A DNA stretch of 64,000 nucleotides from an uncultured virus (IMG/VR IMGVR_UViG_3300033145_002040). Taxonomy: Duplodnaviria; Heunggongvirae; Uroviricota; Caudoviricetes. The first letter of the stretch is position 1. Every line of letters starts with the position of its first letter. Made by a program: the position numbers and the translations under genes. The notes beneath the pieces were generated by a model. It was not told where the DNA came from, made no database searches, and saw nothing but the letters and a program-made list of their open reading frames with translations. This document shows positions 43,683-60,695 of the stretch, in pieces. Location: the IMG/VR virus record IMGVR_UViG_3300033145_002040; one strand, given 5' to 3'.

Positions 43683-43686
43683 TTAG

Positions 43687-43856
43687 TATAAAATGTGGGC
43701 GTTTAGGTTACCTAATCTTCTCCATCATTGAACAACCCACATTTCTGGCTCTTTGTCCAGTCGTCACCAAAGGCTCTTCCTCCCTTAGTTGATAGGTCTT
43801 TAGCCTAACAATGCAAACGGCAGTAAAATTGCAACTGCGATTAATCTATTTTCGTT
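43687..43856 (-). ncRNA. Unrecognised structured RNA, copy A
   Basis: Shares conserved blocks and covarying stems with 60428-60615. Confidence 0.7.
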
Positions 43857-44034
43857 TGTTTTCTTTTCCGAAGTTTATATTTTCGGACTTCATTATTTCT
43901 ACATTTCAAAAAAACACCTATAACCCCCAAATGTGCAGTTTTCCTTTTTTGAAATTCTTTTAATGGCTTATATTCTTTACATTGATAACATTGCAATTTA
44001 CCATCGACTAGCTTTTTTTTATTTTGTCCTGCCT

Positions 44035-44325
44035 TTATACAATATAAGTCTTCTTTCCCTTTATAGCATTATCCTCAATTCTCTTTTTCAACCAAGCTAA
44101 GAGTTTATTATGATCATAAAAACTCAACCGCTCACCCTCATCAATCACGACGCAACCAATCACAAATTTCCTAGAATTTAGAACCGGATAATAATTCCCC
44201 TTTGTCTTGATCTTATCAAATTCTTTCCGATCCGAATCAGTAATCATCTGAGCCTTAATCTGATCTCCGGATTTTTTAGTTCCATCCCAAACTTCATAAG
44301 TTTCAATATCAAAAGCTATCCACAT
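44035..44325 (-). pseudogene. Truncated DEDD 3'-5' exonuclease N-terminus (PolB-type ExoI)
   Basis: MWIAFDIET...FVIGC...KTYIV then stop where ExoII is expected. Confidence 0.5.
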
Positions 44326-44786
44326 TTTATTAAAATTCCATTTATTTCTTTTGGTGGCTTAACCCCTATTCCAAATAGAACACTTCCAAAACGAGGACTT
44401 GTCTGTTTTCTTTCATTATGCTCATAAGCTGTTCTCCCTTTCAAAATAAAAATCCAATCTGCTCTTTTTGAAATAATCTCTTGCCAAAGCTTACTTTCTA
44501 AATTATCTCCTCGATAAATTCCAATTCCCCTCTTTATTATTTTAAAAAAATGTTTAATCATTTCTTCTGCTTTAGAAAATGGTGGATTAATCCAGCAAAC
44601 ATTATTATCATTATTTAAATTTCTATTTAAAAAATCATCACACCAAAATTCACATTTCTTATTTTCATAAGAAGCACAACAATCTAATCTAAAATTATAT
44701 TGTAAATTCAAAATATCAAATAATTCTTTAGGAGTTTCCCAATCATCTCTCTCACTATTATTCCCTTTTCCATCATTTCCTCCCAT
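44316..44786 (-). CDS. Phage-type Dam-like N6-adenine methyltransferase
   Basis: DDWETP, LDCCAS, WINPPFS. Confidence 0.85.
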   Translation of the reverse strand: MGGNDGKGNNSERDDWETPKELFDILNLQYNFRLDCCASYENKKCEFWCDDFLNRNLNNDNNVCWINPPFSKAEEMIKHFFKIIKRGIGIYRGDNLESKLWQEIISKRADWIFILKGRTAYEHNERKQTSPRFGSVLFGIGVKPPKEINGILIKCG

Positions 44787-44964
44787 TACATAAACCCCGA
44801 CAAAGTATTTTTAATTCTATTGTCTCGCCCCAACTTTCCAATTCTCTCATTCTCAGCCTTCACTCTTTTTCTCATGTAAAATTAGGCAGGATACCCGAGT
44901 CTTTAGCGTGTGGGAGAATCATTTCCTCAATAGAATCCCCACAGATTATTTTATTTTTTATCAT
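44786..44964 (-). pseudogene. Internally deleted beta-class DNA methyltransferase remnant interrupted by the mini-element
   Basis: MIKNKIICGDSIEEM resembles beta-MTase N-termini (cf. MEKNKIYNGDC at 36338). Confidence 0.55.
44876..44922 (+). mobile_element. 47-bp chimeric left-end/right-end mini-element (PATE-like)
   Basis: TCAT|GTAAAATTAGGCAGGATACCCGAGTCTTTAG-CGTGTGGGAGAATCAT; halves match the two ends of the 35488-36384 element. Confidence 0.7.
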
Positions 44965-45124
44965 CTTTTTTAACTCCGTTTTTCTTTTCTAAATCCCAAT
45001 ATGCACTTTTACACTTTGGACAAATTCTTGGCTTATCTTTTAATTCTCCTTCTAACTGTGACAATTCAACTCTAGGTATCCACTTGTGACCACACCTTAA
45101 ACATTCAAAGGCATTAACCACCAT
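44951..45124 (-). CDS. Small zinc-ribbon protein, copy 2 (57 aa, not in ORF track)
   Basis: MVVNAFECLRCGHKWIPR...CPKCKSAYWDLEKKNGVKKDDKK; near-identical to copy 1. Confidence 0.75.
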   Translation of the reverse strand: MVVNAFECLRCGHKWIPRVELSQLEGELKDKPRICPKCKSAYWDLEKKNGVKKDDKK

Positions 45125-45132
45125 CTTAATCT

Positions 45133-45180
45133 GGCTTTGTTTAATAAGTCTGGTGTTATTTGGACTTATTAAACAAAGCC
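45133..45180. repeat. Perfect 18-bp inverted repeat with 12-bp spacer beside the recombinase gene
   Basis: GGCTTTGTTTAATAAGTC-TGGTGTTATTTG-GACTTATTAAACAAAGCC. Confidence 0.85.
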
Positions 45181-45200
45181 GGTACTACTATAAAGTAGTA
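45167..45200 (-). promoter_or_regulatory. Class A palindrome with variant BRE/TATA
   Basis: TACTACT-ATAA-AGTAGTA at 45183-45200. Confidence 0.6.
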
Positions 45201-45202
45201 TA

Positions 45203-45841
45203 TTACAGCCCTCTTTCAAGGACACTTGCAATAGCATCTTCAGCAGAACGCTGCGCATATCTAGAAGTTGTTGCTAAATTTGCGTGCCCAAGTAACCGTT
45301 GGACATCGTTAAGTTTAACTCCATTCTTTATTAAATATTGTGTGAAATAATGCCTTAGACAATGAAAATGATATTTGTATCTTGGTCTTCCAGCATCATC
45401 CGTATAAATTACACTATTTATTCCAGCTCTTTTAGAAGCACTTAAAAATGCTTTTGATATAGCTCTTTCTTTTATGTCTATAGGAAAATATTTTAGATGA
45501 TTAGTTTTCAGATGTTTCGGTGTATTGACAACTCTATCTCTAGCACCTTTAGCTTGCCTTATAAATAATTTATGTTCTTTTAAATTTATATCATTAATAT
45601 CAAGCTTAGATATTTCTGACACCCTAAGTCCACTCTCTGCAGCCAATATAAAGCATATATAATGAACAGGTTTATGTACAGCTTTTAATAACTTTAAAAA
45701 TTCATCTTCAGATAAAGCAGTATATATTCTACTCTTTTTTTTGATTTTTGGACTTGATTCAAGAGAGACTAATCTTTTCCCATATTCTTCCGGAGTAATC
45801 AAACCTTCTTCATAAGCTTTTCTTAATTCCTTCCTATTCAT
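45203..45841 (-). CDS. Tyrosine recombinase, catalytic domain only (Xer/integrase-like)
   Basis: GLRVSE, K, HCLRH, LLGHANLATTSRY; no core-binding domain. Confidence 0.92.
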   Translation of the reverse strand: MNRKELRKAYEEGLITPEEYGKRLVSLESSPKIKKKSRIYTALSEDEFLKLLKAVHKPVHYICFILAAESGLRVSEISKLDINDINLKEHKLFIRQAKGARDRVVNTPKHLKTNHLKYFPIDIKERAISKAFLSASKRAGINSVIYTDDAGRPRYKYHFHCLRHYFTQYLIKNGVKLNDVQRLLGHANLATTSRYAQRSAEDAIASVLERGL

Positions 45842-46050
45842 TAATATTTTCTCCTAGAGAATATTAAATATAGTAAAGGCAATATCCCGAAAGTATTAAA
45901 TATTAGAAGGACCCAAAACCAAATTTTAGATTCTTTTCTAGCTGCTCTATAAAGAGCTAACCCTTTCACTATAAGAATTGCAAATAATATTAATACAACA
46001 TTAAAAGCGTTATTCGCAACCCAATTGCTAATTATTATTAAATCTATCAT
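45841..46050 (-). CDS. Small membrane protein (DUF5652-like)
   Basis: KGLALYRAAR...WFWVLLIFNTFGILPLLYL. Confidence 0.7.
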   Translation of the reverse strand: MIDLIIISNWVANNAFNVVLILFAILIVKGLALYRAARKESKIWFWVLLIFNTFGILPLLYLIFSRRKY

Positions 46051-46109
46051 TTATTTTTACCTCCTTCATATTTATATGCTTTTATTTCTACCATCTTGTA
46101 ATATAAACT

Positions 46110-46493
46110 TTACCCTTTATAAACCTTCCGGTTCAATTTCTGTTCTTTCAGCAACTGTTCTATTGCTATAAAAAATCCCTTAGTATGATATTTGTAACGT
46201 TCTATAAGTGAAAGAATCTGGTGTTCTCCTCTTGTAATAGTTATCCCGTTATCTAATCTCCATAACTCTTTACAATTTTCCGCATCTTCAACACTTGAAA
46301 TTTTGTTTCTTAATATAATATCTCTAAACGGATCTTTATGGTGAACTTGAAGATTTTTTAACTTCTCATCATCTCTAAGTAAAACCGCTTGTCTCCATGC
46401 TTTATATTTATCGCAATTTCTTATTTTTAAGCACAACTTATTCAGTTCTTTTTTATCACTCGTTATCGCTTGGCTCTTGCAGATACTCTTCAT
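46110..46493 (-). CDS. HNH-like endonuclease, possibly degenerate
   Basis: YKAWRQAVLLRD, LQVHHK, NGITITRGEH; Zn cysteines missing. Confidence 0.65.
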   Translation of the reverse strand: MKSICKSQAITSDKKELNKLCLKIRNCDKYKAWRQAVLLRDDEKLKNLQVHHKDPFRDIILRNKISSVEDAENCKELWRLDNGITITRGEHQILSLIERYKYHTKGFFIAIEQLLKEQKLNRKVYKG

Positions 46494-46656
46494 AATTATC
46501 TATAGTCATATCAAATCTTCTTGTGATTTTGCCAGTACACTCACACCCGTAGGGACAAGCCATCTCATTGGAGATCTTATCTTGTGTATTAATGTACCAT
46601 TTACGGCCGCAACCAATACATTGATATTGCTCTAAAATTATTTTAATTTTTCTCAT
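46456..46656 (-). CDS. Zinc-ribbon protein
   Basis: CIGC...CPYGC. Confidence 0.65.
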   Translation of the reverse strand: MRKIKIILEQYQCIGCGRKWYINTQDKISNEMACPYGCECTGKITRRFDMTIDNYEEYLQEPSDNE

Positions 46657-46823
46657 TTTAATTTTTTAATACTATCTCCATTTTGGTTTGTTTTAAAGGT
46701 AGTCCTGTCTTTAAATTCAGCAGCTTTCCCCTCATTCCATCTTGAGGTAGGGCGCAAATATCCAACAACGCGACTCCAAATTTCACAACGAGTTCTTTCT
46801 CTAATTATTTTTTCCTCTTTCAT
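46653..46823 (-). CDS. Stand-alone NrdD-type glycyl-radical domain peptide (56 aa, not in ORF track)
   Basis: RTRCEIWSRVVGYLRPTSRWNEGKAAEFKDR; ATGA overlap with next gene. Confidence 0.85.
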   Translation of the reverse strand: MKEEKIIRERTRCEIWSRVVGYLRPTSRWNEGKAAEFKDRTTFKTNQNGDSIKKLK

Positions 46824-46961
46824 ATGATCCTTCCTCTTCCCTCATTCTAAGTTTCCTATAAGGGAAACCTTTATTCCGTTTAATCTTATCCTTCCTCTTG
46901 TTGCGATTTTCAAATTGTGTATCCATTATAGAATAGGTATACAATATTATAGTAGATCTGC

Positions 46962-46995
46962 TTTATAAATCTTTCGGTACTACTATTTAGTAGTA
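46962..46995 (-). promoter_or_regulatory. Class A promoter
   Basis: TTTATAAATCTTTCGG-TACTACT-ATTT-AGTAGTA. Confidence 0.8.
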
Positions 46996-47181
46996 ATTCT
47001 AATCAACCATATAACTATTTTAAAACGTCGTGATTGTGAAAGCCCCACAACATTGGGACAAATAATAATAAATTGTTTTGATTAAGGGTTTATTCTTTAG
47101 TAGCTTCTAATACTGTCTTCAGTTTACTCATCTTTTCCATAAAATAATTTATAATATCAGATGCTGTTTCTAAATCTATTT

Positions 47182-47490
47182 TTATCTCATCGCTAAAATA
47201 TGCAAAAACTGTGCTAATATTATCTTTCTTAATTTTGAAACTGGGAATATAGAGTTTAACGAAAGGACTGGATGCCTTTCTTTTTCAACTGGTGAGGATG
47301 GACTATTCCCAGTTTCTGTTTCTATCAATCCTTCAGAAAATGTTGCTTCGTTTTGATGTCCATCCTCATCAGTGTATTCTATAGTTTTCTTAAACCCTTC
47401 TTCTTTTGCAGATTCCAAAATATCGCAATGTATAGACATATATGTATCCATTTTTACTTTTCCTCCTTCTCCGTTATTTCTTGTTCCCAT
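47182..47490 (-). CDS. Hypothetical protein
   Basis: ORF on the dominant strand. Confidence 0.45.
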   Translation of the reverse strand: MGTRNNGEGGKVKMDTYMSIHCDILESAKEEGFKKTIEYTDEDGHQNEATFSEGLIETETGNSPSSPVEKERHPVLSLNSIFPVSKLRKIILAQFLHILAMR

Positions 47491-47714
47491 ACTTTCGCTT
47501 CCGCTTGTACAGAACTACATGAGTATAAATTTAAAAGATAATTAGTTTATATAACTACTACTTTGTTTCCTCTATCGTATTTAAAGCGAACTTATAATCA
47601 GCATGGTTACCATCTCCGTTTATTGCTAGTGAGCTTTGAGGCATTTTTAATAACTTCATAGAAGTCTTATCCCCATTTCTGGTTCTCGCCATTTCACCAT
47701 GCTGATTATTATAA

Positions 47715-47963
47715 TTACTCATTTGTTTTCTTATGTGTTATGTTCAATTTTTTAATTTTTGCTTTGCCAATCAACCATCCTAAGAAAGATAATTGCGTGT
47801 TGGCATAAGACTCACCAAGATCAGAACGAATTTTCAGCTCATTTAAAAGTTCTTTTTTAGAAAGAGAACGACACGTCGTTCCAAAAGTTATAGAATCTGG
47901 CATACTTTCTAATCTCTTCTCAATTAAAAACCATTCATCTTCTGTTAATTCTTTTTTTACCAT
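47715..47963 (-). CDS. Hypothetical protein
   Basis: Coupled ORF. Confidence 0.6.
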   Translation of the reverse strand: MVKKELTEDEWFLIEKRLESMPDSITFGTTCRSLSKKELLNELKIRSDLGESYANTQLSFLGWLIGKAKIKKLNITHKKTNE

Positions 47964-48172
47964 TTTTCGTTCTTTATAGCCTCAATTTCTTCATAAGTCT
48001 CTAGCTCCCAAGTATCACTAGCTCCTTCTTTATTTATTATATTTATTTGCCACGTTGAATCTTCATTACAAATTTCATCTATTACTGAATTAAATACTCT
48101 TGCTTGTTCATTTAAGTCATCAGTCAAATTTCTTAGCTGCCTTACTGTAACCTTCATTCCTTGTCTTTTCAT
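47957..48172 (-). CDS. Hypothetical protein, paralog of the C-terminal half of 59303..59737
   Basis: KRQGMxVTxxQLRxLxDDL...QINIIN...SDTW. Confidence 0.7.
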   Translation of the reverse strand: MKRQGMKVTVRQLRNLTDDLNEQARVFNSVIDEICNEDSTWQINIINKEGASDTWELETYEEIEAIKNEKW

Positions 48173-48367
48173 TTTATTGTTTCATTTATCTCTTTTGTCT
48201 TCTCCACTTTTAAATTTTCTTTAGTATGTTTAAATGTACCTTTGATATTCTTACTACCAACAATTTCTAAAAAAGAGAAACCAGCAGATTTAATATCTAA
48301 TCTCCAATCGTGTTCTATGTTGCTATAATAATTTATTACCATTTTTTTTTGAATTTATGTTAGTTGT

Positions 48368-48736
48368 TTATAATCTTACTCTCTCAATAGTATAATCAAA
48401 TTTGCTTTCATTTCTATTTTGATATACATAAAAGGAAAACACCCTATTAATTTTATATTGTTTTTGGATATATATCTTATCTGCATCTAATTGGATATAA
48501 GCCTTAGCACTTGCTGATGGTCTATCTGTTGTTTTCACTTCAAATGCATATGCATAGTTATTATTTAACACCAATAAATCTGCTTCATGATATCCTCGAA
48601 ATTTATATTTAAATTCTTTCAATATAACACAATTTTTATCCCTTACCCTATCTTCTAATAAATCAATAGTATTTGCATGGAATGATCTACCCCTCTTTTT
48701 TTGCTTCCTTATTCCATCTTTTAATTTTACTACCAC
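48368..48736 (-). CDS. PD-(D/E)xK nuclease-like protein
   Basis: E...HEADLLV...AFEVKT...QL. Confidence 0.7.
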   Translation of the reverse strand: MVVKLKDGIRKQKKRGRSFHANTIDLLEDRVRDKNCVILKEFKYKFRGYHEADLLVLNNNYAYAFEVKTTDRPSASAKAYIQLDADKIYIQKQYKINRVFSFYVYQNRNESKFDYTIERVRL

Positions 48737-48939
48737 TCTCCGCTCCCATAGTACGCACCATATTTATCTTTCCATTTTTTTGCATAATTGTTAAGAATTT
48801 TCTTATATTTTCTTAGCTGTTCTATTTCTCCTGGATGAATGCACTTAACTATCCTTATTGTCTCCTGCATTCTCCTATCTAAGTATATTTTCTCTTCTTC
48901 TATTTTTTTCTCTAAGTTACTTTCTCCCATTTTAATCAT
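48730..48939 (-). CDS. Hypothetical protein
   Basis: Coupled ORF. Confidence 0.55.
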   Translation of the reverse strand: MIKMGESNLEKKIEEEKIYLDRRMQETIRIVKCIHPGEIEQLRKYKKILNNYAKKWKDKYGAYYGSGEW

Positions 48940-50461
48940 AAATCTCGAATCTAAGGAGCCCTCCGAATCCTCCTAAATTTCTAAATTGTACTCCCTCCGG
49001 TGTCTCATCAGTGACAAGATGTACCTCCGATGAAGATGACTCTGCTAATTCCATAAACAGTTTAACTTTTTCTTTAGGTAATGATTTTGAAAGGATTAAT
49101 TTTTCTACTGCCCCTTTTCTCAATCTGTCTTCTACCTCAGCTTCTCCATATGAAACTTTATTAGGATCTTTCCCTAACCTTTCCATAAATAAGTCTATAA
49201 TTATTCTTTGCTTAGTTATTTCTTGCTCCTCTAAATCAGATTTACAAAGTTTTACTAATTCCTCTAATCCCTTCATTCCATCTCCTCCCATATCTTTTAA
49301 TGCTATAACTTTATTCCTAAGTTGAGTTACAAGTTGAGATTGCTTTAAAAATTTATCTTTAGTTGGAGTTGGCCCACCGATGAAAATTCCTTTTAATTTT
49401 TTGTTATCCCAAAATAATCTTTTCATATGTTCTGCTGTTTTCTTATAAAACTCCTTCGCTGTACTATCTCTAACTCTCTCAAATCGCTGAGCGGAGTTAT
49501 GAACAATTAACCCATTTGCTATAAAATTATGGGTATCTGTTTCTATATCTATAGTATCTGATATTCCTACTGATTCTATTTTAGATATTTTTACAGGTAT
49601 AATATTTGATGGATATATATTATCATTATATATGCTGTTAGGAATAACCAAGTAATCATTTTCTTTTATCTCCGATAACAACCTCTCATGTATGATATTA
49701 TCTGCTACAACAAAGAAAGTATGGTCCAATGAAGCCCTTATATTAATCTTAGGATGATAAGTTGTAATCTCAAAAAGTTCTTTTTTATTCTTCCACTTAG
49801 ATACTACCTTCGTATTCTCCATCTTCCCACTATCAAAATTATAACCTATAATGGTAGATAATTCATCTACCTCATTAATAGGTATGATCTCCCCGTTATC
49901 TTTCATCACTAACGTATCCGTAGATAAACATTGCCCACCCGTCTTGTGCTGTCCAGGGACTCCAGAATAAATGTGCTTTAATAGTTTAATACTATTCCCA
50001 TCTAAAATTCCTATTGATGCCTCATTCAATTCTATTATAAGAAGCCCGTACACCTCATCCGATTCTAACATATCAATCAGAGGGTCTAATAAAAATCTTT
50101 GATCACAACGATAGGTTCTTACATTTAATATCTTAGGGGGCTCTATCGCCCAAACTTCCAATGATTCTCTCCCATCAGTAGTTGTAATTAAACCGGAGAA
50201 TACCGCTAATCCGTTTTTTGGCGTTCTACCTATTTCTTTCAGTTTTCTAACAGCTAAATCTAACGCATTAATAACATTTTTTCTTGTTGTGCTAGATTTA
50301 ATATTATTTGCAGTTCCCTTCTCATCTTCTAGTTGCTTTTTCATTTGCACCAGAGAAGCCCCAGCCGGTATTAATACTGTAATCAATTCAGTATGTTTAC
50401 CATGATAACTTCCAAGCTCTTCAACGAAAGCCTCTAATTCATATTTTTGTAATTCATCCAT
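48932..50461 (-). CDS. prf1: Archaeal peptide chain release factor aRF1 containing a mini-intein
   Basis: TELIT, NIKS, YRCDQRF, GGQ|...|SAQRF, GGFGGLLRF. Confidence 0.93.
   Translation of the reverse strand: MDELQKYELEAFVEELGSYHGKHTELITVLIPAGASLVQMKKQLEDEKGTANNIKSSTTRKNVINALDLAVRKLKEIGRTPKNGLAVFSGLITTTDGRESLEVWAIEPPKILNVRTYRCDQRFLLDPLIDMLESDEVYGLLIIELNEASIGILDGNSIKLLKHIYSGVPGQHKTGGQCLSTDTLVMKDNGEIIPINEVDELSTIIGYNFDSGKMENTKVVSKWKNKKELFEITTYHPKINIRASLDHTFFVVADNIIHERLLSEIKENDYLVIPNSIYNDNIYPSNIIPVKISKIESVGISDTIDIETDTHNFIANGLIVHNSAQRFERVRDSTAKEFYKKTAEHMKRLFWDNKKLKGIFIGGPTPTKDKFLKQSQLVTQLRNKVIALKDMGGDGMKGLEELVKLCKSDLEEQEITKQRIIIDLFMERLGKDPNKVSYGEAEVEDRLRKGAVEKLILSKSLPKEKVKLFMELAESSSSEVHLVTDETPEGVQFRNLGGFGGLLRFEIYD
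49496..49930 (-). other. 145-aa mini-intein (no homing endonuclease) inserted directly after GGQ
   Basis: CLSTDTLV (block A), ASLDHTFF (block B), TIDIE...HNFIANGLIVHN|S (blocks F/G). Confidence 0.93.
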
Positions 50462-50489
50462 TTTATATATCCTATATAATTATCTATCC

Positions 50490-50523
50490 TTTATAAACTT
50501 TTTGATACCACTAAATAGTGGCA
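50490..50523 (-). promoter_or_regulatory. Class A promoter of aRF1
   Basis: TTTATAAACTTTTTGA-TACCACT-AAAT-AGTGGCA. Confidence 0.75.
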
Positions 50524-50540
50524 CATTTTATTATTATAAT

Positions 50541-50636
50541 CCGTAGGTTAGAGGAGCCACCTCCATGTGTGTAGACGCTATCTACTCTAAGGGCAAGGGC
50601 TCTTGCCGCCGGCTCATTATTCACATTAACCTACGG
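50541..50636 (-). ncRNA. Candidate structured RNA downstream of the tRNA cluster
   Basis: 10-bp closing helix CCGTAGGTTA/TAACCTACGG, inner GAGCC/GGCTC, two internal hairpins. Confidence 0.5.
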
Positions 50637-50654
50637 TTATCGCCTTTCGACGAA

Positions 50655-50728
50655 TGGGGTTGCCCAGATTTGAACTAGGACTAGAGCGTTCCAGACGCCC
50701 GGTCATAACCAGATTAGACTACAACCCC
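50655..50728 (-). tRNA. tRNA-Pro(TGG), atypical C33/A37
   Basis: Acceptor GGGGTTG/CAACCCC; GGGCG-TCTGGAA-CGCTC; T-loop TTCAAAT. Confidence 0.8.
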
Positions 50729-50731
50729 TTA

Positions 50732-50802
50732 TGCGAGATAAGGGTAACTCACCCTTGTTTCTTGGTTGGAAGCCAAGCGTTCTGCTATTAAACTAATCTC
50801 AC
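50732..50802 (-). tRNA. tRNA-Gly(TCC) with non-canonical D- and T-loops
   Basis: GTGAGAT/ATCTCGC; CTTGG-CTTCCAA-CCAAG; T-loop TGAGTTA; no GG in D-loop. Confidence 0.75.
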
Positions 50803-50831
50803 TTACAACTTTGAAAAAGCTGAATAAACAA

Positions 50832-50906
50832 TAGCAGGAGATGGATTCGAACCACCGGTATCTAACGCATGAGTCCAGTGCATTAACCTAACTGTGCTAC
50901 CCCGCT
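50832..50906 (-). tRNA. tRNA-Met(CAT), A1:U72 initiator-like acceptor, weak anticodon stem
   Basis: AGCGGGG/TCCTGCT; loop CTCATGC; T-arm GGTGG-TTCGAAT-CCATC. Confidence 0.72.
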
Positions 50907-51193
50907 ATTAAAATTGACAAACAACCCTAGAAGTAATTACTAATTTAATCTATATCTCCAGTTTCATCATTACTAACCTCAGCAATATATTCTTCAGCCG
51001 TATTGATGTCATTCACAATAGCAGCTTGAGTTTTTTCGGCAGTCATCACTTCCCCTTCATTCGCAATAATTTTTTCATTTTTCATTTTAATTTAAACCTC
51101 CTTATAATAATGTTTTAACATTATGAATAAAATTATATCCCCCAGCACCTACTTAAAGGTGAAGGGAATATTTAATAATAACAAATAACAAGC

Positions 51194-51227
51194 TTTATAA
51201 ATCTTATATTCCTACTACAAAGTAGTA
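51194..51227 (-). promoter_or_regulatory. Class A promoter upstream of a small ORF and the tRNA cluster
   Basis: TTTATAAATCTTATAT-TCCTACT-ACAA-AGTAGTA. Confidence 0.65.
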
Positions 51228-51238
51228 TTACTTAAGAT

Positions 51239-51862
51239 TTATTTTTTAGCTTTCTTTTTTGCTACTTTACTTCTCTTGACAATCTTCTTTACTAATGTGA
51301 AGTTTCTTGCAGGAGCAGTAAAAGTATCTCCGATGTAACCTTTGTGAGCTTCTTTATCTTTATGATCGATTAAGATAACCTTCATAGATCCAGTGCTAGT
51401 TATACTTAATACCCTACACTTGCATCCTTTATAGAGGTGTTCATAAGATATGTTCTCTCCATTTACATTCGTCTGTGGGATAATACCTGTTATAATATCT
51501 CCAACTTTAAAAGAAGGATTAACATTAAACATATCAGTATTATCAGATACGTCTACAGGAGTATAGCGAATACTCGTCATTTCTCCCCTAAGCCTATTCT
51601 CAGTAGCATCAAGCTGTTCTTTTGTAGCCCCGAATAGAGGAAACAAAATCCACATACCAATCAAATAAATCACCCCAGCAACGATAATCATAGGCCAGAA
51701 TAATATAGTTAATCCTACAGCAAGCTCACACTCAAAATCCTCACGATGATTAAATAATGAAGAAACTATATACCCTACTAACATACCAACGATGAGATAA
51801 AGAAATATACCTCCGAAAGTAGCCAAAAGAATTGTCAATTCGGAACAATTTTCATATACCAT
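51239..51862 (-). CDS. Membrane protein with C-terminal SH3-like domain
   Basis: Two TM helices, FWP, FKVGDII; GGAGG SD. Confidence 0.7.
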   Translation of the reverse strand: MVYENCSELTILLATFGGIFLYLIVGMLVGYIVSSLFNHREDFECELAVGLTILFWPMIIVAGVIYLIGMWILFPLFGATKEQLDATENRLRGEMTSIRYTPVDVSDNTDMFNVNPSFKVGDIITGIIPQTNVNGENISYEHLYKGCKCRVLSITSTGSMKVILIDHKDKEAHKGYIGDTFTAPARNFTLVKKIVKRSKVAKKKAKK

Positions 51863-51886
51863 TTTTATTTTTTACCTCCTTTCATT

Positions 51887-53158: not shown

Positions 53159-53175
53159 TTTTTATTCTCCTGTTA

Positions 53176-54450
53176 CTAATATTCATCTTTATCACTAGGC
53201 TCGGCACTATCACCATCAAGTATACCGAGTGACTTAGTATTAACATAAATAGGAGCTCTAATTTTAAAATCTTTTTCTTCAAATTTAATAAAAGTAATCC
53301 ACCTTCGTTTAATATAATTTTGTATAGGTCTATCAAATATCTCCAAAAAAGCTTTCTTAGTAATTTTCATAGATCCAATCTCTTCTAGACTTTTATCTTC
53401 TAAAAACTTTAACACACTTTGATGAATTGATATCCAATTGATAATCTTTGATGGATTAACAGTACCAGAATGACTCCTTATTTCCAAAGTGCCTCTATAA
53501 AATATGCTATGAAGATTCGCCCAGCAATATCTCTTATCGTACCCATGCTGCCTTATCTTTCTGGAATAATTACTTGTTTCATACAGCATCTCTTTAAATT
53601 CATCTAAAGTTTTTACGCTTATTATATCTTCGGGAGTATCCTTATAATAACCAGAGAACCTTTTGCAATACCTTATATGCCGTCTGCTCTTCGGCAACAT
53701 ATTAAAAAACATATCCTCAAACCTTAAATAAAATAGATAAAGTTTCTTTAAAAATTCCAGCTCTTTCTTAACTTCCAGATGTATATGAAGACCACAAGTT
53801 TTATCAACTCTATAATGTTTCTTGTTTAGCTCTTTCCCAAATTCTTCTATTGATTCAAATAATAAATCCCCATTCATAGGAACACTACGGAACTCAACCC
53901 CACCATGGCTCAATGAACCATCCCTCCCTTGAGAAAATCTTAAAACTTTAAGCTCTTTTCTAATAAAACAATTTGCATCTCTATTTTTATTAAGGCATTC
54001 TATCTCTACCCCACAATAACGATTACTAGGATTTTTTATAAATGTTTTTGACGGCTCTTTTCTCTCTCCTATATCTATACGATGAAAATTCCTATAAGCA
54101 CTATTGTAGCATGATAAACAAAGTTTGTTATTATTATATGAATTAAGATTATTATTAAATATACGCCTACCACAATCTTCACAATTAGATGTCCTATCTC
54201 TAAAGCAAACGGCACAAATATTCTTCCTTTCGACTTTAATTAATGTTGGGACTATACCATCACAACATTCGCAAAATTTGAATTTATTCTTAGCACATTC
54301 CTTACAATAAACAACATCATCAACAGTTCTATATTCTTTATTGGAAAACAAGCCTGCCTTTTCAGAACATACGCTACATCTTTTTAACTTAAATAGTGCC
54401 TTTATACCATTTTTAATATTTATATATTTATTTTTTATTATATTTACCAT
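53176..54450 (-). CDS. Putative amidoligase (COOH-NH2 ligase) with N-terminal CxxC repeats
   Basis: GVEIE, DGSL...EFRS, TCGLHIH, GTLEIRSH. Confidence 0.85.
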   Translation of the reverse strand: MVNIIKNKYINIKNGIKALFKLKRCSVCSEKAGLFSNKEYRTVDDVVYCKECAKNKFKFCECCDGIVPTLIKVERKNICAVCFRDRTSNCEDCGRRIFNNNLNSYNNNKLCLSCYNSAYRNFHRIDIGERKEPSKTFIKNPSNRYCGVEIECLNKNRDANCFIRKELKVLRFSQGRDGSLSHGGVEFRSVPMNGDLLFESIEEFGKELNKKHYRVDKTCGLHIHLEVKKELEFLKKLYLFYLRFEDMFFNMLPKSRRHIRYCKRFSGYYKDTPEDIISVKTLDEFKEMLYETSNYSRKIRQHGYDKRYCWANLHSIFYRGTLEIRSHSGTVNPSKIINWISIHQSVLKFLEDKSLEEIGSMKITKKAFLEIFDRPIQNYIKRRWITFIKFEEKDFKIRAPIYVNTKSLGILDGDSAEPSDKDEY

Positions 54451-54451
54451 C

Positions 54452-55246
54452 TTATTTTTTTCTAACGCTCCTAAGCATCCTCATAAAAGTAGAACGTGAT
54501 TTCCCGGTTTGCTCTTTCCACTTATCACAAGCCACTTCTAATTTAGTATATTTTAATACTAAATCCAATAATAATTGTACATCTTTATCTGAACTAAGAA
54601 TCTCACTTGCAAATATCTTCCAGTCAAAACCCTTCTCTTTTATTTTGGATAATATAATTAATGACCTTATCGACAAATTTTTAGTAGCAGCTGAACAACT
54701 TTCATTAATATATTTCACTACTTCTTCATCTATTTCTTTATCTTCTTTTAGCTCTTTAAATATATCTAACTTCTCATTAAATGTAAAATCAAAATCTATG
54801 TTTACACCTCTACTTACAATAGGCTCAAAGCTAGACAACACTCCATTAAATATTAATATAATTGATGCTTCTATCTTAAAATTATCTGGAATATCCAACT
54901 TATCAAAAGCCTTAGATGTAGTGTAATAACTTACATCTCTATTATCAGAGTGTGACCCCCAACATGCAGCCTTAAGCATCCCCAGTATCTTAGCATCTCC
55001 TATATTAGATAAATCATCAAAAATTATAATCTTTTTATTTCTATTTTTATATAGTAGTTCATAGAACTTAAGAGGAGTAGAATATGTTTTTATATAAGCA
55101 TAATCTAATTTCTTTTTCTTAACAAAATCTATGATTCTATGCGTCTTCCCCATCCCAGGGTCACCCCTTACTACCAATAAATTAAACGCGCCCTTATCCA
55201 TTGCATTCAACGATACCTCTAGCAATTTATATTTATTATTCTCCAT
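54452..55246 (-). CDS. AAA+ ATPase with C-terminal HTH
   Basis: Walker A GDPGMGKT, Walker B IIIFDD, TGKSRSTFMR. Confidence 0.8.
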   Translation of the reverse strand: MENNKYKLLEVSLNAMDKGAFNLLVVRGDPGMGKTHRIIDFVKKKKLDYAYIKTYSTPLKFYELLYKNRNKKIIIFDDLSNIGDAKILGMLKAACWGSHSDNRDVSYYTTSKAFDKLDIPDNFKIEASIILIFNGVLSSFEPIVSRGVNIDFDFTFNEKLDIFKELKEDKEIDEEVVKYINESCSAATKNLSIRSLIILSKIKEKGFDWKIFASEILSSDKDVQLLLDLVLKYTKLEVACDKWKEQTGKSRSTFMRMLRSVRKK

Positions 55247-55256
55247 ATTTATTTAA

Positions 55257-55460
55257 CTAATATATAAAAACAATAGAGCATTGTCCCCAAAAATGTTTTA
55301 TTATAGATGCTCTTCCTTCTTTACTAGAAGTCCCGTATTTATTAATAACACTTATAAGTTCCTTCTCATCCCAATTCATAAGTTTACATACTGATTTAGC
55401 TTTACTCTCAGCACTTCCCACTATCTTTAAAATATCTTTAATTTTTAATTCTGTTTGCAT
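55257..55460 (-). CDS. Hypothetical protein
   Basis: SD-preceded ORF. Confidence 0.55.
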   Translation of the reverse strand: MQTELKIKDILKIVGSAESKAKSVCKLMNWDEKELISVINKYGTSSKEGRASIIKHFWGQCSIVFIY

Positions 55461-55655
55461 TTTTCCTCCTAGTTAATTTACTTATTTCTTCTTACACTTT
55501 ATCCTCAAAAAGGATACTATATTTTTTTGGTATATGGACATATACTCTTGTGGATTTTTTTTTGAAGATTAAACATATCTTCTCATCTGGGTACCACACA
55601 ATAGTTACTTCCGCAAATTTTCTTACTATTTCATTTCTAAACATTTGCCTCTCCT

Positions 55656-55976
55656 TCAAACCACATTTTCAGCTATAGCTTCTGGGCTCCACATTTTCTT
55701 TAAACATTCATCGCAATACACTCTATTAAACCCATCATCGGAGATTTTGCTGTCATCACTAAAATTTTTTCCACACCTTACACAATTCGTATGTGTTTCT
55801 ATTTCACTTTCTATAACGATATCCATAAGATGAGCTATCTCATCTTTTTTCTCTGAAGAAACTCCTTCAATACCATCCATTAATTTGTTATAGCATTGTA
55901 ACTCTTCTTCATTTAAATCATCTTTAGTGATATCTTTATCAAATACTATAGATTTATATGCCTTATTTTTTATCAT
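55656..55976 (-). CDS. Zn-finger protein
   Basis: CVRC...CDEC; GGAGG SD. Confidence 0.65.
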   Translation of the reverse strand: MIKNKAYKSIVFDKDITKDDLNEEELQCYNKLMDGIEGVSSEKKDEIAHLMDIVIESEIETHTNCVRCGKNFSDDSKISDDGFNRVYCDECLKKMWSPEAIAENVV

Positions 55977-56439
55977 CTTTATTTACCTCCTTTCTTATTT
56001 TATTTTTATCATTAACTATAGGAGTATTAATACTATCCAAATTGAATAAAATATTCAAATTATTTTTTAAATTCTTTATTGCACTTGTTGTTCTATTTAT
56101 ATTCTTATCCTTATTTCTAATAGCTTTCTGAAGATTAACTATCTTTTTAAACTGCCTAGCCACAACATCACTCTCTTTTATAAACTTGTTTTCTGGGTAA
56201 AATTGCTCATCACATTCTGAACATACTCTAACACGAAGTTCTGAGATATGAGGACAAATACATCTAAGTCTTTTAGGGACTAAATGATGAGCAGTAGTCT
56301 TTCTTTTTTTGCCACAAATTTGACAACAACCCTTTTTGTAGCTATTAGACTTCAGATATCTAATCTTACCAATTTTAAGAAAATATATATCATCTAAATC
56401 TTTACCGCTCTCTATCACGCCCTTATCCTCAATATCCAT
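55963..56439 (-). CDS. HNH-like protein with coiled-coil tail
   Basis: CQIC...TAHHLVP...VCSEC. Confidence 0.65.
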   Translation of the reverse strand: MDIEDKGVIESGKDLDDIYFLKIGKIRYLKSNSYKKGCCQICGKKRKTTAHHLVPKRLRCICPHISELRVRVCSECDEQFYPENKFIKESDVVARQFKKIVNLQKAIRNKDKNINRTTSAIKNLKNNLNILFNLDSINTPIVNDKNKIRKEVNKDDKK

Positions 56440-56863
56440 TATTTATATCCTCTATAATTTTTAGCTTCTCATTATCTTTAGTCCAATCCCCAGAACATAT
56501 AATATTTTTATCATCAACAGCTCTATCATAAACATAAATAACTCCTATTTTGCCATCATTATCTTTAACCTCAACCGGTGTATATCCAGCACTTCTTTCC
56601 ATTTTATCTATCCTATCAAATACCTCATCTGACAAACTATATAATTCAACATATAATCTTTCCCCGGTGGAAGACGATTTTATCCCGGGATAACTCCATA
56701 ATAAATAAAGCTTATATCCGTCTATAAAACCTTTTTTAATTAGTCTATTTCTTGGATTATCATCTATTAAAGAATGATTAAAAAATCCCTTCTTTAAACT
56801 TCCATATACAAACATATTTTTCATTTTTTTTCTCCATTTGTTTTTTTTCAAATTCCATTTCAA
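56429..56863 (-). CDS. Gamma-glutamylcyclotransferase (AIG2-like)
   Basis: MFVYGSLKKG, YPG, ELY...IDKME...Y. Confidence 0.88.
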   Translation of the reverse strand: MKWNLKKNKWRKKMKNMFVYGSLKKGFFNHSLIDDNPRNRLIKKGFIDGYKLYLLWSYPGIKSSSTGERLYVELYSLSDEVFDRIDKMERSAGYTPVEVKDNDGKIGVIYVYDRAVDDKNIICSGDWTKDNEKLKIIEDINNGY

Positions 56864-57180
56864 TTTTCATTGCAACTTGTTCTCCATTTAGTAATTTCCC
56901 AAAAACCCGAAATAGTACAATATTTTGCTATTATTTCTTTATCAGTTAAATCTAACTCCGTTCTATTGATAACCTCAAGTGTAATATAATCTACATCTTC
57001 ACATGTATTTCCAAACATGTTTTCATTATAGAACCAATTCTCTCCATACTCAGAAGCACAAACTTTATCCATATTAGGAAATGGAGTAATAAAAGCACTT
57101 CGAATAGCTATCAAAAAAAACAATATACCAATAATAATAAGAATTATGTTAATAAGTTTTTCTTGTTGTTGTCCATTCAT
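56860..57180 (-). CDS. Membrane-anchored Cys-containing protein
   Basis: N-terminal TM. Confidence 0.65.
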   Translation of the reverse strand: MNGQQQEKLINIILIIIGILFFLIAIRSAFITPFPNMDKVCASEYGENWFYNENMFGNTCEDVDYITLEVINRTELDLTDKEIIAKYCTISGFWEITKWRTSCNEN

Positions 57181-57647
57181 TTTGATTTCTCCTCAGTAAG
57201 ACGAGCAATCTCTTGTTTACTTTTATTAGTATCTCTTTCGAATGTGCTTATATCTCTGATTAAAATACTATCTTTTAATTTAGATTCTTTAGCCATTTTG
57301 TTTCTAATAATAAGCCATCTATCCAAAAACTTTAATTCTTCTTCTTTATTCATTTTAATTTCTCCAATATTATATATCTCTGCAATCTATCAGAAAATTC
57401 TAATAGTTTTATTCCTCTAGTTAACTCTTCTTTAGTCATTAACTTTTTATCATATGGTTCCATAAATACTTCACAAGCATAGTCATCTAAAACGATTCTT
57501 CCCATTGCTGTCAACCATAGACCACCTCCCATATTTTCATTTATTATTTTTTCTTTTTCCATCTTTTGTTTCTCTCTTACTATATAGCAAAGTAAACGAC
57601 ATAGATAAGTATATATTGATATTTTATTATACCTAAAAGAGTAGAAA

Positions 57648-57965
57648 TTACTGTCCCGCCAATAAGACAAAGCCATTTTCTTTTAAATATTTTCTAACTC
57701 TTTTGAAATATACAACTGAATTATCAAAATTTCTATAAATTATTCTGACTTGTTTTGGGCTAATACTTATTATTTCATAATCTAGGAGATGTCCACATAA
57801 CGGACATCTTTGTTCTTCCAGTTCTGCGTACTCTCTACTATTTGTATTATTAATAAATACACGTCCAGATATTCTACTTGGGAATCTACATTTTGGGCAT
57901 ATGTCTTTATTCACCATCAGCCACCTCTGCGGTTTCTTTCTGTTTTGCGAAGTTATATTTTTCAT
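57648..57965 (-). CDS. Zinc-ribbon protein
   Basis: CPKC...CPLCG. Confidence 0.6.
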   Translation of the reverse strand: MKNITSQNRKKPQRWLMVNKDICPKCRFPSRISGRVFINNTNSREYAELEEQRCPLCGHLLDYEIISISPKQVRIIYRNFDNSVVYFKRVRKYLKENGFVLLAGQ

Positions 57966-58043
57966 GTATTGTCACAATATTATAAAAACAATATAAAAAG
58001 ATACTAAGCACAAATATTAAAAACACTGTAGATAAGCGTTCTA

Positions 58044-58346
58044 TCATTTTTCACCTTCCACCACATTTTCTTCTGATTTTGTGTCGTTTAATGATTCTAG
58101 ATAATCATTTTGTTTATGGATATATTGATGCATCTTTCTAATTTCTCCATCAATTTTATCATTTATAATTAAGTCTAATAATTTGAATACTTCTCGGTGT
58201 TTTAATTTCGCATTTCTAATTATTTCCTTTGTTTCGTTAGTTGGTTTTATTACTTTATTATATAAAATTCTATTTCTCAAAACAAGATACTGGATTATTT
58301 GTCTTTTATCAACTTTAGTTCTTATGTTTTGTAGATTACTTTTCAT
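58044..58346 (-). CDS. Hypothetical protein
   Basis: GAGGTG SD. Confidence 0.6.
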   Translation of the reverse strand: MKSNLQNIRTKVDKRQIIQYLVLRNRILYNKVIKPTNETKEIIRNAKLKHREVFKLLDLIINDKIDGEIRKMHQYIHKQNDYLESLNDTKSEENVVEGEK

Positions 58347-58666
58347 ATTTTCACCTCAGCAGTTTCTTCTGATAAAACGAAGTTACTTAATATCTCTGTA
58401 TTCAAATTATTTTCAGATATTACTGTTTTTATTTTTTCCCACTCATAAACATTATTAAATTTAAATCTAACTACTATCTCTCTTTTAGTGTGGTATTTAG
58501 ACATCGTCTACCTCACAAAATGCGTCGTTTAATTTAAAAAATCTTGTTTTCCCAGCACATTTTCCTTTTTCCCAGAATGTAATCTCTGCTAATTCATTTT
58601 CTGGGTCGTTTTCTATATCATTGTATTCATCAAAATCTATTTCAACATATTCTTTATTATCTAATT

Positions 58667-58921
58667 TCATTTCTTTCTACTCCCAAATTTATCTTCTCCG
58701 AAATGTTCTTCTGTCTTTTCTGCGTGTGATTTTTCTTTTATTGGATTGAGTAATAATGTAGTTTCTTTCGTTCTTTCTTTCCCATACTTAAGGCTTAGGC
58801 AATCGTAAACTTCATTTAATGGACAATATTCATTTGTGCAAGTTTTATTACTGCATTTAATTCCGGAAAAATTCATACATCGTCTTGCAATTTTTATGTT
58901 ATCTTTTATTGATTTATCCAT
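58667..58921 (-). CDS. Cys-rich hypothetical protein
   Basis: CSNKTCTNEYCPLN. Confidence 0.55.
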   Translation of the reverse strand: MDKSIKDNIKIARRCMNFSGIKCSNKTCTNEYCPLNEVYDCLSLKYGKERTKETTLLLNPIKEKSHAEKTEEHFGEDKFGSRKK

Positions 58922-59302
58922 ATTGTTCCTCTGCAGTTTTTACATCTTTGTTTTCCCATACTAATCAGATTGCGAATTAATAAGAAAATTTATTTGTTGC
59001 TTGGTTATTGTATTTGCACAACATTCACATATTGGAACCCTTTTAAACTTTATATTAAAATATCCTGCTTCGATTAACTCACCATTATAATCTTCAATAT
59101 CATTTCCACAGACTTTGCATTTCATTGCGTCTCCTTTTTGGTTTCGGAATCCTTACAATAACACTCCCAACATTTAGTTTTATCTCCGTTTAGTCCAACT
59201 GAATCAATCCAGTCTAAATAAGCTGTCATAGATAAAAAATTATCATTTAAAATAATTGCTCCGTTTGTTTTATGTCCGCATTTATATTTTACCATATTCG
59301 CC

Positions 59303-59737
59303 TTAACTATCCTTCAAGTCCTCAATCTTCCAAGTGTCTGAACATTCCTCTTGAGGATTTATTATATTTATTTGAAATTTAGTTCCATATCCAGATATTT
59401 CATATTTATTTTTATTATCTTTTACTTCTATTTCTAAATCATCTGCTAGAGTTCTAAGTTGGTCTATTGTTACTATCATTCCTTGTCTTTTTACTTGTTG
59501 GGATGTTTGTTTAAATTTGTACCCCTCTTTAGCTATTTCAAATAAATCTTTTTCATTTGAACTCCAATCCTGCTCATTATAAAATGCAAAAACACATCTG
59601 CCGAATGCTTCCCAAAGTTCTAATCTCTTTCTAACCCAATTAATATCATCTCTTCGTCCATCCCATGTAGTATGAGCTAGTCCGTTGTTAAGACCTTCTA
59701 CTATTGCATTATACCATTCTTGTATTTTTGTTCCCAT
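59303..59737 (-). CDS. Hypothetical fusion protein
   Basis: C-terminal half paralogous to 47957..48172. Confidence 0.65.
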   Translation of the reverse strand: MGTKIQEWYNAIVEGLNNGLAHTTWDGRRDDINWVRKRLELWEAFGRCVFAFYNEQDWSSNEKDLFEIAKEGYKFKQTSQQVKRQGMIVTIDQLRTLADDLEIEVKDNKNKYEISGYGTKFQINIINPQEECSDTWKIEDLKDS

Positions 59738-59755
59738 TGTTTTTCTAGCTCCTTT

Positions 59756-60133
59756 TTAATCTGCATGTAACATAACATTGTCTGGAATATCATTTATTCT
59801 ATATTTTAACTCTTCCCTTAGTATTCTTTCTATTTCTGTATCTTTAATATGGACTTGCGTTTTAAGTATATTTTTAATATGTTGTGTTTCTAAATCTTTT
59901 ATTAAAATCAATTTACAGGTTAAATCTTTTTTATTAAGTTGCCCCCATGATTCAATTTCCCTAATGATTTTATGTGGCAAATCATAGCTAGACATCTCTG
60001 CGTTCCATGTACTCATTCCATCTTCTACTATGCCTAAATTTATTAATAATTGTCCAAATCTTAAATCATAGTTAGCTTCCCATTCCTTAGTAAGCCAATC
60101 CATAAATGGCTTGATTCTTTTTTTGTTTCTCAT
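59756..60133 (-). CDS. DUF1040/YihD-like viral protein
   Basis: MRNKKRI...W...DLRFGQLL. Confidence 0.65.
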   Translation of the reverse strand: MRNKKRIKPFMDWLTKEWEANYDLRFGQLLINLGIVEDGMSTWNAEMSSYDLPHKIIREIESWGQLNKKDLTCKLILIKDLETQHIKNILKTQVHIKDTEIERILREELKYRINDIPDNVMLHAD

Positions 60134-60427
60134 CTTTTTGTTTTGTTATTCATCTTCTCCTTTTTCTTTGTCTGATATTATAATGTCAGCAGGGGAAGAG
60201 AATGGCAGGTGAGACGATGAATCCACCACTTTTGTTATAACGCCGTCCCTTTTTGTTTGGGCATCTTCCTTTTTCCCTTGCACATCATCATGAGGTTTCC
60301 CTCCTTTAGGTAGCTGACTATGATTTGATTGTTTTTCTTCCATTTTTTTTGTTATTACTATCTTACTTTTCCCCATTGTTTCCTTCTGTTGACATATTAT
60401 CTCCGTTAGTATAAAATCACTTGTGAT

Positions 60428-60615
60428 TATAAAATGTGGGCTTACGTGTTTCTTTGCTGTTAGCTTAGCAATTTAATGCTGTCCCTTTTCACCCACATTA
60501 CCAGTCTTTCAACCAGTTCCGAATTATCGGTGTCAGCCCTTGCCGGACGTCCTACTGTCAAGTGGGACAATGCAAACGGTGGGAAAATTGCACCCACGAT
60601 TAATCTGTTTTCATT
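60428..60615 (-). ncRNA. Unrecognised structured RNA, copy B, downstream of its own class A promoter
   Basis: Covarying stems relative to copy A; ends in AATGTGGG...CCCACATT followed by a short U-run. Confidence 0.72.
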
Positions 60616-60661
60616 CACAACCTTTTCCCCAATTTTATTCTCTATTGGTAATATTATAGGA

Positions 60662-60695
60662 TTTATAAACCTTTCGGTACTACTTAATAGTAGTT
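60662..60695 (-). promoter_or_regulatory. Class A promoter
   Basis: TTTATAAACCTTTCGG-TACTACT-TAAT-AGTAGTT. Confidence 0.8.

Follow-up and report, generated by a model that had tools for sequence, protein, structure and literature searches.

What is the element that occurs twice on one strand of the viral record IMGVR_UViG_3300033145_002040, and what might it do for the genome that carries it? The stretch analysed here (the window) is 64,000 nucleotides (nt) long and holds two diverged copies, A and B, of about 200-240 nt, both on the - strand of one archaeal virus-like genome. A first-pass annotation had proposed an RNA with compensatory base changes at these two places. Both copies were found on the - strand at the positions it gave, but their extent had been set too short: the similarity reaches about 25 nt further in the 5' direction (to about 43880 and 60640) and on the 3' side runs on through TTTTATACTAACGG (to 43680 and 60403). 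The answer put forward here, tentatively and as a first choice among several, is that the element is a structured 5' leader, co-transcribed with the genes behind it, that would serve as a protein-binding platform.

The similarity between the copies is real and not due to chance matching. The alignment comprises 243 columns with a mean column identity of 74% (the single blocks are listed in Table 1), and all the blocks named in the first-pass annotation were recovered, namely GAAAAYAGATTAATCG, the stem GCAGT/ACTGC versus GTGGG/CCCAC, the loop TGCAATTTT, CCGTTTGCATTGT, the AACTGG hairpin and the terminal stem AATGTGGGT...GCCCACATT, whose inserts (34 nt in A, 49 nt in B) are unrelated. The sequences AGATTAATCG, GTTTGCATTG, CCCACATTTT and TACTAACGG each occur twice in the window, solely in copies A and B. 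The core pattern has 2 matches in the window where 0.27 are expected, a number that was reached in 1 of 100 shuffled sequences. A covariance model built from the pair (R1) and run over both strands of the window with filters off gave 281 and 220 bits for the copies and 16.5 bits for the runner-up. To judge from their sequences, A and B are old paralogues.

Base pairing has been kept between the copies while the paired bases have changed. In three shared helices with together 18 pairs, all 36 pair cells hold standard pairs, a share that drops to 36-47% once the 3' partners are shifted by 1-3 columns. The inner stem of 5 base pairs (bp) is GCAGU/ACUGC in copy A and GUGGG/CCCAC in copy B, with three pairs altered on both sides, and these compensatory pairs account for 6 of the 7 differences in the whole 46-nt core. 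Among 2,000,000 simulated sets of 7 random substitutions in this core, none left the stem paired with at least three double changes. The CUGG hairpin stays paired through changes from U-A to U-G and from G-C to G-U. RNAalifold adds an outer helix of 6 bp in which CAAACG (A) or UGAAUG (B) pairs with an invariant CGUUUG, and the three one-sided differences are all transitions that keep the pair as G-U. The fold of this first part (domain I), with the outer helix, a one-sided internal loop of 14 nt, the inner stem and a loop of 9 nt, is both the minimum free energy (MFE) and the centroid structure when each copy is folded alone.

The wobble pairs also indicate which strand is folded. Five substitutions in copy B pair solely as G-U, and a U-G closing pair is present in both copies. 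Since these pairs would be A-C mismatches on the + strand, the folded molecule is RNA of the - strand, which is the strand of all the neighbouring genes. The compensatory and G-U-compatible changes thus agree with the earlier proposal of an RNA that is read from the - strand with its pairing held.

The first-pass annotation had set a kept peptide frame against kept base pairs. It is extremely improbable that the element encodes a small hydrophobic peptide in the frame NENRLI-x-x-AI-x-x-PFAL. This frame is open over the best-conserved 46 nt in both copies and covers a hydrophobic segment, copy B has a GTG start followed by 52 codons, and the sole difference outside the stem is synonymous (AAT versus AAC). 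However, both copies keep the frame open across the core alone; copy A offers none of the starts ATG, GTG and TTG and meets a stop after 24 codons, past which at least 130 nt are conserved in pairing blocks. The six other differences, all in the inner stem, result in four amino acid changes (A/V, V/G, L/F and L/P) but are exactly complementary in pairs, which none of the simulated sets matched. Copy A has stops in every reading frame, no frame is open through both copies, and no word-sharing relative of the 52-amino-acid (aa) open reading frame (ORF) of copy B was found in a collection of 5.8 billion protein clusters. The base pairs and not the peptide frame are kept, and from its sequence the element is non-coding.

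The folds suggest five or six hairpins in a row, with single-stranded parts that are frozen, and not a compact knotted shape. From 5' to 3' the predicted order is domain I, one or two variable hairpins, a hairpin with a purine loop, the CUGG hairpin, the terminal hairpin and a U-run with a tail. All 9 pairs of the terminal hairpin are invariant between the copies and are present in the folds. The invariant single-stranded parts are AAAAYAGAUUAAUC, UGCAAUUUU, CAUUGU and the tail UUUUAUACUAACGG, and in copy A the final three bases of the tail are the 5' end of a tRNA-like gene. An H-type pseudoknot between the loop of the inner stem and the sequence downstream had also been proposed. The complementarity exists, with UGCAA in the loop and UUGCA 3 nt past the stem in both copies, but the comparative support fails because the TGCAA and TTGCA strands are invariant and show no covariation. 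The first loop of such a pseudoknot would be 0 nt long, and its 3' strand would need bases that also belong to the 6-8-bp outer helix (3' strand, columns 63-68). This competing helix has three wobble-compatible changes and is predicted by RNAalifold and by both single-sequence folds. The H-type pseudoknot is not supported.

The element belongs to no catalogued RNA family in Rfam 15, which agrees with its being unrecognised in the first-pass annotation. At gathering thresholds a scan of the whole window gave four tRNA matches, all elsewhere. At E<=10 the best matches overlapping the two loci were SNORD15 (16.6 bits, threshold 75) and Atu_Ti4 (15 bits, threshold 40), and the int-alpA RNA (RF02996) was absent among the matches over either locus. 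A riboswitch or a self-cleaving ribozyme would fit the invariant single strands between covarying stems and the location of copy B in a 5' leader. Both are very doubtful, in that no riboswitch or ribozyme model matched, even at E<=10, and the row of hairpins has no multi-helix junction or supported tertiary pairing. The downstream genes are moreover unrelated, a tRNA-like gene and zinc-ribbon genes behind copy A versus small ORFs of no known kind behind copy B, which is unlike control by one ligand. Nothing that was found speaks specifically for either role. Other candidates were rejected: group I, group II or homing-endonuclease introns (no Rfam match and no split host gene around copy B), transfer-messenger RNA (none found by ARAGORN), C/D or H/ACA guide RNA (box motifs not present in both copies) and attachment (att) sites of an integrated element (the related record G001, described below, carries the interior genes without the repeats).

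The position of the element adds to the evidence from pairing. The window has 10 copies, all on the - strand, of a promoter module (repeat family D2) in which the hairpin TACTACTnnnnAGTAGTA is found directly upstream of CCGAAAGATTTATAAAG. At most of these copies the TATA box and the next ATG are 25-35 nt apart, a spacing that marks archaeal promoters of leaderless or near-leaderless messages. One of these modules, of the same type as the nine others and judged to be a strong promoter, stands directly in front of copy B, much as had been noted before. The TATA box ends at 60662 and the next ORF starts at 60376, about 285 nt on. Because the sister promoters have 25-35 nt between TATA box and ATG, the transcript of copy B is predicted to start near 60639, the point from which it is similar to copy A. 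Some 9 kb of small genes (22 ORFs on the same strand) separate the module of copy B from the next one downstream, at 51230-51193, and co-transcription of copy B with the downstream genes is likely because there is no further promoter module for 9 kb. Runs of seven T precede both copies, at 43914-43908 for A and at 60777-60771 for B, the latter ahead of the promoter module; oligo-T runs terminate archaeal transcripts.

Copy A is preceded by a stretch that resembles a transcription factor B recognition element (BRE) and TATA box, and it abuts the tRNA-like gene. This gene was called solely by ARAGORN in intron mode, with a 9-nt intron in the anticodon loop and an anticodon assignment that is not credible, and neither default ARAGORN nor Rfam gave a call. 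There is no TATA box at the usual distance upstream of it, and more small genes follow downstream. Since the tail of copy A overlaps the first 3 nt of the tRNA-like gene, which has no TATA box at that distance, the sequence implies that the two must be co-transcribed. A 5-bp hairpin is also found upstream of each copy on the - strand, CCGAA/TTCGG in A (43886-43868) and CCAAT/ATTGG in B (60648-60629), at a nearly equal distance to a shared GGAAAAG, shifted by 2-3 nt between the copies. In B the predicted transcript start falls inside this hairpin, and in A its 5' arm and loop double as the BRE/TATA look-alike. It may be an RNA feature, a promoter feature or a product of chance.

Table 1. Positions of the two copies, their parts and the associated promoter and tRNA-like features; positions are those of the window unless alignment columns are given
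Feature	Position	Strand	Remarks
Copy A, full similarity extent	43880-43676	-	RNA reads from 43880 down; model R1 220.4 bits
Copy B, full similarity extent	60640-60398	-	Model R1 281.1 bits
Core	Columns 29-74		39/46 identical
Variable hairpins	Columns 75-123		13/49 identical
CUGG hairpin and 5' strand of terminal stem	Columns 124-150		18/27 identical
Insert inside terminal hairpin	Columns 151-199		12/49 identical
3' strand of terminal stem and U-run	Columns 200-214		14/15 identical
Copy A, domain I	43858-43814	-	MFE and centroid of isolated domain; RNAalifold
Copy A, outer helix CAAACG/CGUUUG	43858-43853 with 43819-43814	-	
Copy A, invariant 14-nt internal loop AAAAUAGAUUAAUC	43852-43839	-	
Copy A, inner stem GCAGU/ACUGC	43838-43834 with 43824-43820	-	
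Copy A, invariant loop UGCAAUUUU	43833-43825	-	
Copy A, middle section	43807-43745	-	
Copy A, variable hairpin UAGG/CCUA	43807-43793	-	
Copy A, hairpin with purine loop AGGAAGAG	43789-43766	-	
Copy A, hairpin CUGG/CCAG	43760-43745	-	One of three shared helices
Copy A, terminal long hairpin, 34-nt insert	43743-43692	-	AAUGUGGGU (43743-43735) with GCCCACAUU (43700-43692)
Copy A, tail UUUUAUACUAACGG	43693-43680	-	U4 run, then conserved single-stranded tail
Copy B, domain I	60617-60573	-	Pair counts, RNAalifold, single-copy folds
Copy B, outer helix UGAAUG/CGUUUG	60617-60612 with 60578-60573	-	
Copy B, outer helix, extendable to 8 contiguous bp	60619-60612 with 60578-60571	-	
Copy B, internal loop AAAACAGAUUAAUC	60611-60598	-	
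Copy B, inner stem GUGGG/CCCAC	60597-60593 with 60583-60579	-	
Copy B, loop UGCAAUUUU	60592-60584	-	
Copy B, middle section	60568-60500	-	
Copy B, variable hairpin	60568-60549	-	
Copy B, small hairpin, loop GGCAA	60548-60536	-	
Copy B, extra hairpin CCGA-UAAU-UCGG	60530-60519	-	
Copy B, hairpin ACUGGUU-GAAA-GACUGGU	60517-60500	-	Pairing kept with two G-U pairs
Copy B, terminal long hairpin, unrelated 49-nt insert	60499-60433	-	AAUGUGGGU (60499-60491) with GCCCACAUU (60441-60433)
Copy B, tail	60434-60403	-	U4 run; extra hairpin AAUCAC-AA-GUGAUU (60428-60415); UUUUAUACUAACGG (60416-60403)
Promoter module before copy B	60698-60661	-	Hairpin ACTACTnnnnAGTAGT then CCGAAAGGTTTATAAAT (BRE/TATA)
Stretch upstream of copy A, CCGAAAATATAAAC	43886-43873	-	BRE/TATA-like look-alike, weaker than the module, or 5' arm and loop of a hairpin
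tRNA-like gene abutting copy A	43682-43598	-	Acceptor stem, T arm (GGAGG-TTCGATT-CCTCT), 16-nt anticodon loop
Promoter modules 1-5	21020-21057, 24224-24261, 27146-27183, 31526-31563, 33181-33218	-	
Promoter modules 6-10	41065-41102, 46961-46998, 50489-50526, 51193-51230, 60661-60698	-	

In the mechanism proposed for such a leader, each copy would be the first thing transcribed in its unit, from the - strand. The stems vary as long as they are paired while the loops and linkers are frozen, and the invariant single strands are therefore read as a possible recognition surface. Held in place by changeable stems, the invariant loops would bind a viral or a host protein, and the leader might then affect the transcript of which it is a part, by way of processing or stability or by enabling the polymerase to pass the U-runs. 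In the case of copy A, a cut by RNase P at the 5' end of the tRNA-like gene could free the leader. In this respect copy A is similar to the tRNA precursor leaders that are removed by RNase P, since it is fused to a tRNA-shaped 5' end and cleavage would set its 3' end. Those leaders, however, are short and unstructured, and copy B is not followed by a tRNA-like gene and shares only the CGG.

A small RNA, released or stand-alone, is nearly as likely as a leader that stays with its transcript. The stand-alone form taken by itself, which is rather unlikely, would be the product of a trans-acting small RNA gene with its own promoter, about 165-210 nt long and ending at the U-run. Its targets would be elsewhere; it might decoy or scaffold proteins or regulate as an antisense RNA, for instance, and the downstream genes would use the tail box TTTTATAC as their promoter. 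There is a promoter ahead and a stable hairpin with U4 at the end, and the similarity starts at the promoter-like stretch, as if promoter and RNA gene had been duplicated together. In copy B a distance of 33 nt separates the second TTTTATAC (60416-60409) from the ATG at 60376, which agrees with the 25-35 nt from TATA box to ATG at the sister modules. In copy A, however, only 5 nt lie between this box and the start of the tRNA-like gene, which rules it out as the promoter of that gene. We also take U4 to be short for an archaeal terminator, and the conserved tail past the U-run means that conservation goes beyond the proposed 3' end. Copy B resembles archaeal small RNA genes and folded 5' leaders alike in being a conserved folded RNA right after a BRE/TATA promoter and in being restricted to one lineage, with stems that differ yet stay paired; of the 10 promoter modules, only 1 carries the element.

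A more specific suggestion is a promoter-proximal RNA that loads a factor on the archaeal transcription machinery, or binds this machinery itself, and enables read-through of the oligo-T tracts, which are numerous in this AT-rich genome; it would be an archaeal form of processive antitermination by RNA. The covarying stems would then position the invariant loops as the recognition surface. This suggestion is regarded as quite improbable, and the comparison it invites is with putL and putR of phage HK022, which are cis-acting promoter-proximal antiterminator RNAs of about 70 nt with two stem-loops that act on the bacterial RNA polymerase. Like putL and putR, the element would be present as two paralogues per viral genome, each transcribed first, between a promoter and a long operon, with stem sequences that differ while the pairing is kept, and no homologue is needed outside the virus lineage. 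Unlike them, it is about 200 nt long with five or six hairpins, belongs to an archaeal replicon and has no sequence in common with them; the likeness is one of position only.

The assignment of the replicon bears on all these comparisons. It has 31% G+C and long same-strand runs of small ORFs, most of them without a family. The aRF1 gene contains all three eRF1 domains and an intein, its nearest clusters in a protein atlas are archaeal, and the atlas contains an identical aRF1 sequence. STT3, glycosyltransferases and tRNAs are also encoded, and one of the large Laminin-G proteins in the window matches a virion structural PHROG. Because of the aRF1 with its three eRF1 domains and intein, the STT3 and the BRE/TATA modules, the replicon is classified from its sequence as archaeal, probably a large archaeal virus or virus-like replicon. 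The intein-interrupted aRF1 gene (48932-50461, - strand) forms a translation-related set together with four tRNA genes (38770-38843, 50655-50728, 50732-50802 and 50831-50907), one of which was seen by Rfam only. Just upstream of copy B, at 61212-61643, there is a fragment that resembles a class II CCA-adding enzyme in its RNA-binding and HD parts. At the other end of the window (1-1040), a 57-bp tandem repeat with 18 copies of 93% identity is found in the 5' part of a 1208-aa ORF.

Relatives of the genome were sought with the promoter module as a probe. The IMG/VR record G001 (65.6 kb, estimated to be 35% complete) has 6 copies of the module and is syntenic with positions 1032-46937 of the window, with an amino acid identity of 60-85%. 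In the JGI metagenomes 70 loci have the module and only 14 of these share proteins with the window; the module marks a wider group of contigs. None of the 14 loci covers window positions 41177-45200 or anything beyond 46998, and both copies of the element are therefore located in parts of the genome without a sampled counterpart.

Searches for the element itself included the covariance-model search that had been suggested as a check, and R1 found no homologue in the collections scanned. It had no match in two whole IMG/VR records (G001 and G002), and the best score among the 70 metagenome loci (608,010 bases) was 19.1 bits for a sequence without the paired core. Among 151 genomes of one DPANN phylum, two gave 21.7 and 20.1 bits over 62 and 109 nt, matches that are uninspected and at the level of noise in the window. 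Pattern scans of IMG/VR gave 32 and 13 loci, all unrelated coding sequence when inspected; the three-block core pattern gave 0 loci in the JGI metagenomes, and a looser pattern gave 23 loci in the GTDB species genomes, none with the stem or the flanking blocks. In a phage collection there was no match by blastn (both loci), megablast (12 kb) or tblastn (aRF1), and no relative was found in IMG/VR by locus searches based on the flanking 136-aa protein and on aRF1.

The surroundings of copy A raise the question whether the element is a feature of DNA or of a mobile element, such as a transposon-end remnant, a stand-alone guide-RNA scaffold like the omega RNA of TnpB, an operator region or a site of recombination. 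This is improbable, although copy A is located in a 4.1-kb island that is absent from the closest relative and that contains TnpB, an IceA-like nuclease ORF, a split C5 methylase, a truncated exonuclease-like ORF and duplicated zinc-ribbon genes, and although GATTAATC and TGCA are palindromic. The pairing that is possible on one strand only, by G-U, favours RNA over duplex DNA, GATTAATC occurs at 4 sites in the window and is unremarkable for the base composition, and neither terminal inverted repeats nor target duplications were seen next to the copies. The omega RNA (reRNA) is the closest comparison among these: it belongs to a similar size class (150-250 nt), has stems of variable length and a conserved 3' end that could precede a variable guide, and the island with copy A also has a tnpB gene. 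An omega RNA shares sequence with the 3' end of tnpB and reaches to the right end of the transposon. The sole long sub-threshold match to R1 (41543-41336) spans the region from the 3' end of tnpB to the point where the methylase resumes, the expected site of an omega RNA, and shares GCUGUUUGAAUUGU and a terminal AACGG with the element. It scores only 12.8 bits, at the level of noise, and its helices are broken by mismatches. Neither copy adjoins the 3' end of a tnpB gene, A being 1.2 kb upstream of the tnpB start and B 18 kb away. The link to transposon guide RNAs is thus weak.

The edges of the island (41102-45203) have a promoter-less module hairpin upstream (45199-45180) and a hairpin with promoter downstream, and the module hairpin may also be a site of recombination or cassette insertion beside the small tyrosine recombinase gene (45203-45841). 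The sequences are compatible with either an insertion in the window genome or a deletion in the relative. The C5 cytosine methylase pseudogene (- strand; 43343-43074 and 41349-41140) is split between Pfam positions 58 and 62 by an insert with a startless IceA/NlaIII-like nuclease ORF (43090-42494; PF05315, E 3.9e-34) followed by the TnpB gene (42488-41355); the methylase resumes 18 nt past the tnpB stop and ends at profile position 124 of 324. A duplication of 183 nt with 90% identity (43287-43469 and 44950-45132) carries a small zinc-ribbon gene of the CxxC...CxxC type (67 and 57 aa), and its two copies flank a segment with a Dam methylase, a 96-aa ORF, copy A and the tRNA-like gene. The 96-aa ORF (44035-44325, - strand) has no Pfam match, starts with MWIAFDIET, which we take to resemble the ExoI motif of exonucleases, and seems to end before the expected second exonuclease motif. 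A 51-aa ORF (43841-43996, - strand), likewise without a Pfam match, has a CxxC...KPLKEF pattern like that of the zinc fingers of HNH-type endonucleases. Both ORFs look like gene remnants.

Several observations weigh against the leader reading. Copy A has an ambiguous promoter, and if CCGAAAATATAAAC were its TATA region, transcription would start past the 5' strand of the outer helix. The nine other promoter modules drive genes without such a leader, and the U-runs after the terminal hairpin are only 4 long, which is a weak argument for termination and for read-through alike. The folding energies are evidence against a strongly structured RNA, as modelled: the z-scores are -1.32 for copy A (equalled by 18 of 200 shuffles) and -0.75 for copy B (43 of 200), and those of the sub-domains, from -0.18 to -1.47, are only weakly better than for shuffled sequence. 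In the shuffle control of the pair cells the result was 62 of 500, and an alignment of two rows cannot discriminate here. The comparison is between two sequences of one genome, and the covariation consists of one stem plus wobble changes. The relative G001 is without the 4.1-kb island that holds copy A, the integrase stop (45203) being joined to the promoter (41102), and the metagenome contig L113 has the same island-free junction; the element is thus dispensable for that lineage. Finally, no homologue was found in any collection searched (IMG/VR, GTDB, JGI, related contigs and DPANN).

To our knowledge very few structured RNAs are known from archaeal viruses, and we know of none that controls elongation or the fate of a transcript, nor of any description of RNA-based processive antitermination in Archaea. 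The two copies come from a single uncultivated genome and no relative was found in the collections that were searched, so that computation alone cannot close the case. If it were true, the antitermination reading would amount to a new class of virus-encoded regulatory RNA in Archaea. The RNA pair is a clean candidate, with unique blocks and stems that have changed on both sides, at what appears to be the head of two transcription units, and it may offer an approachable handle on how early expression is organised in a large archaeal virus.

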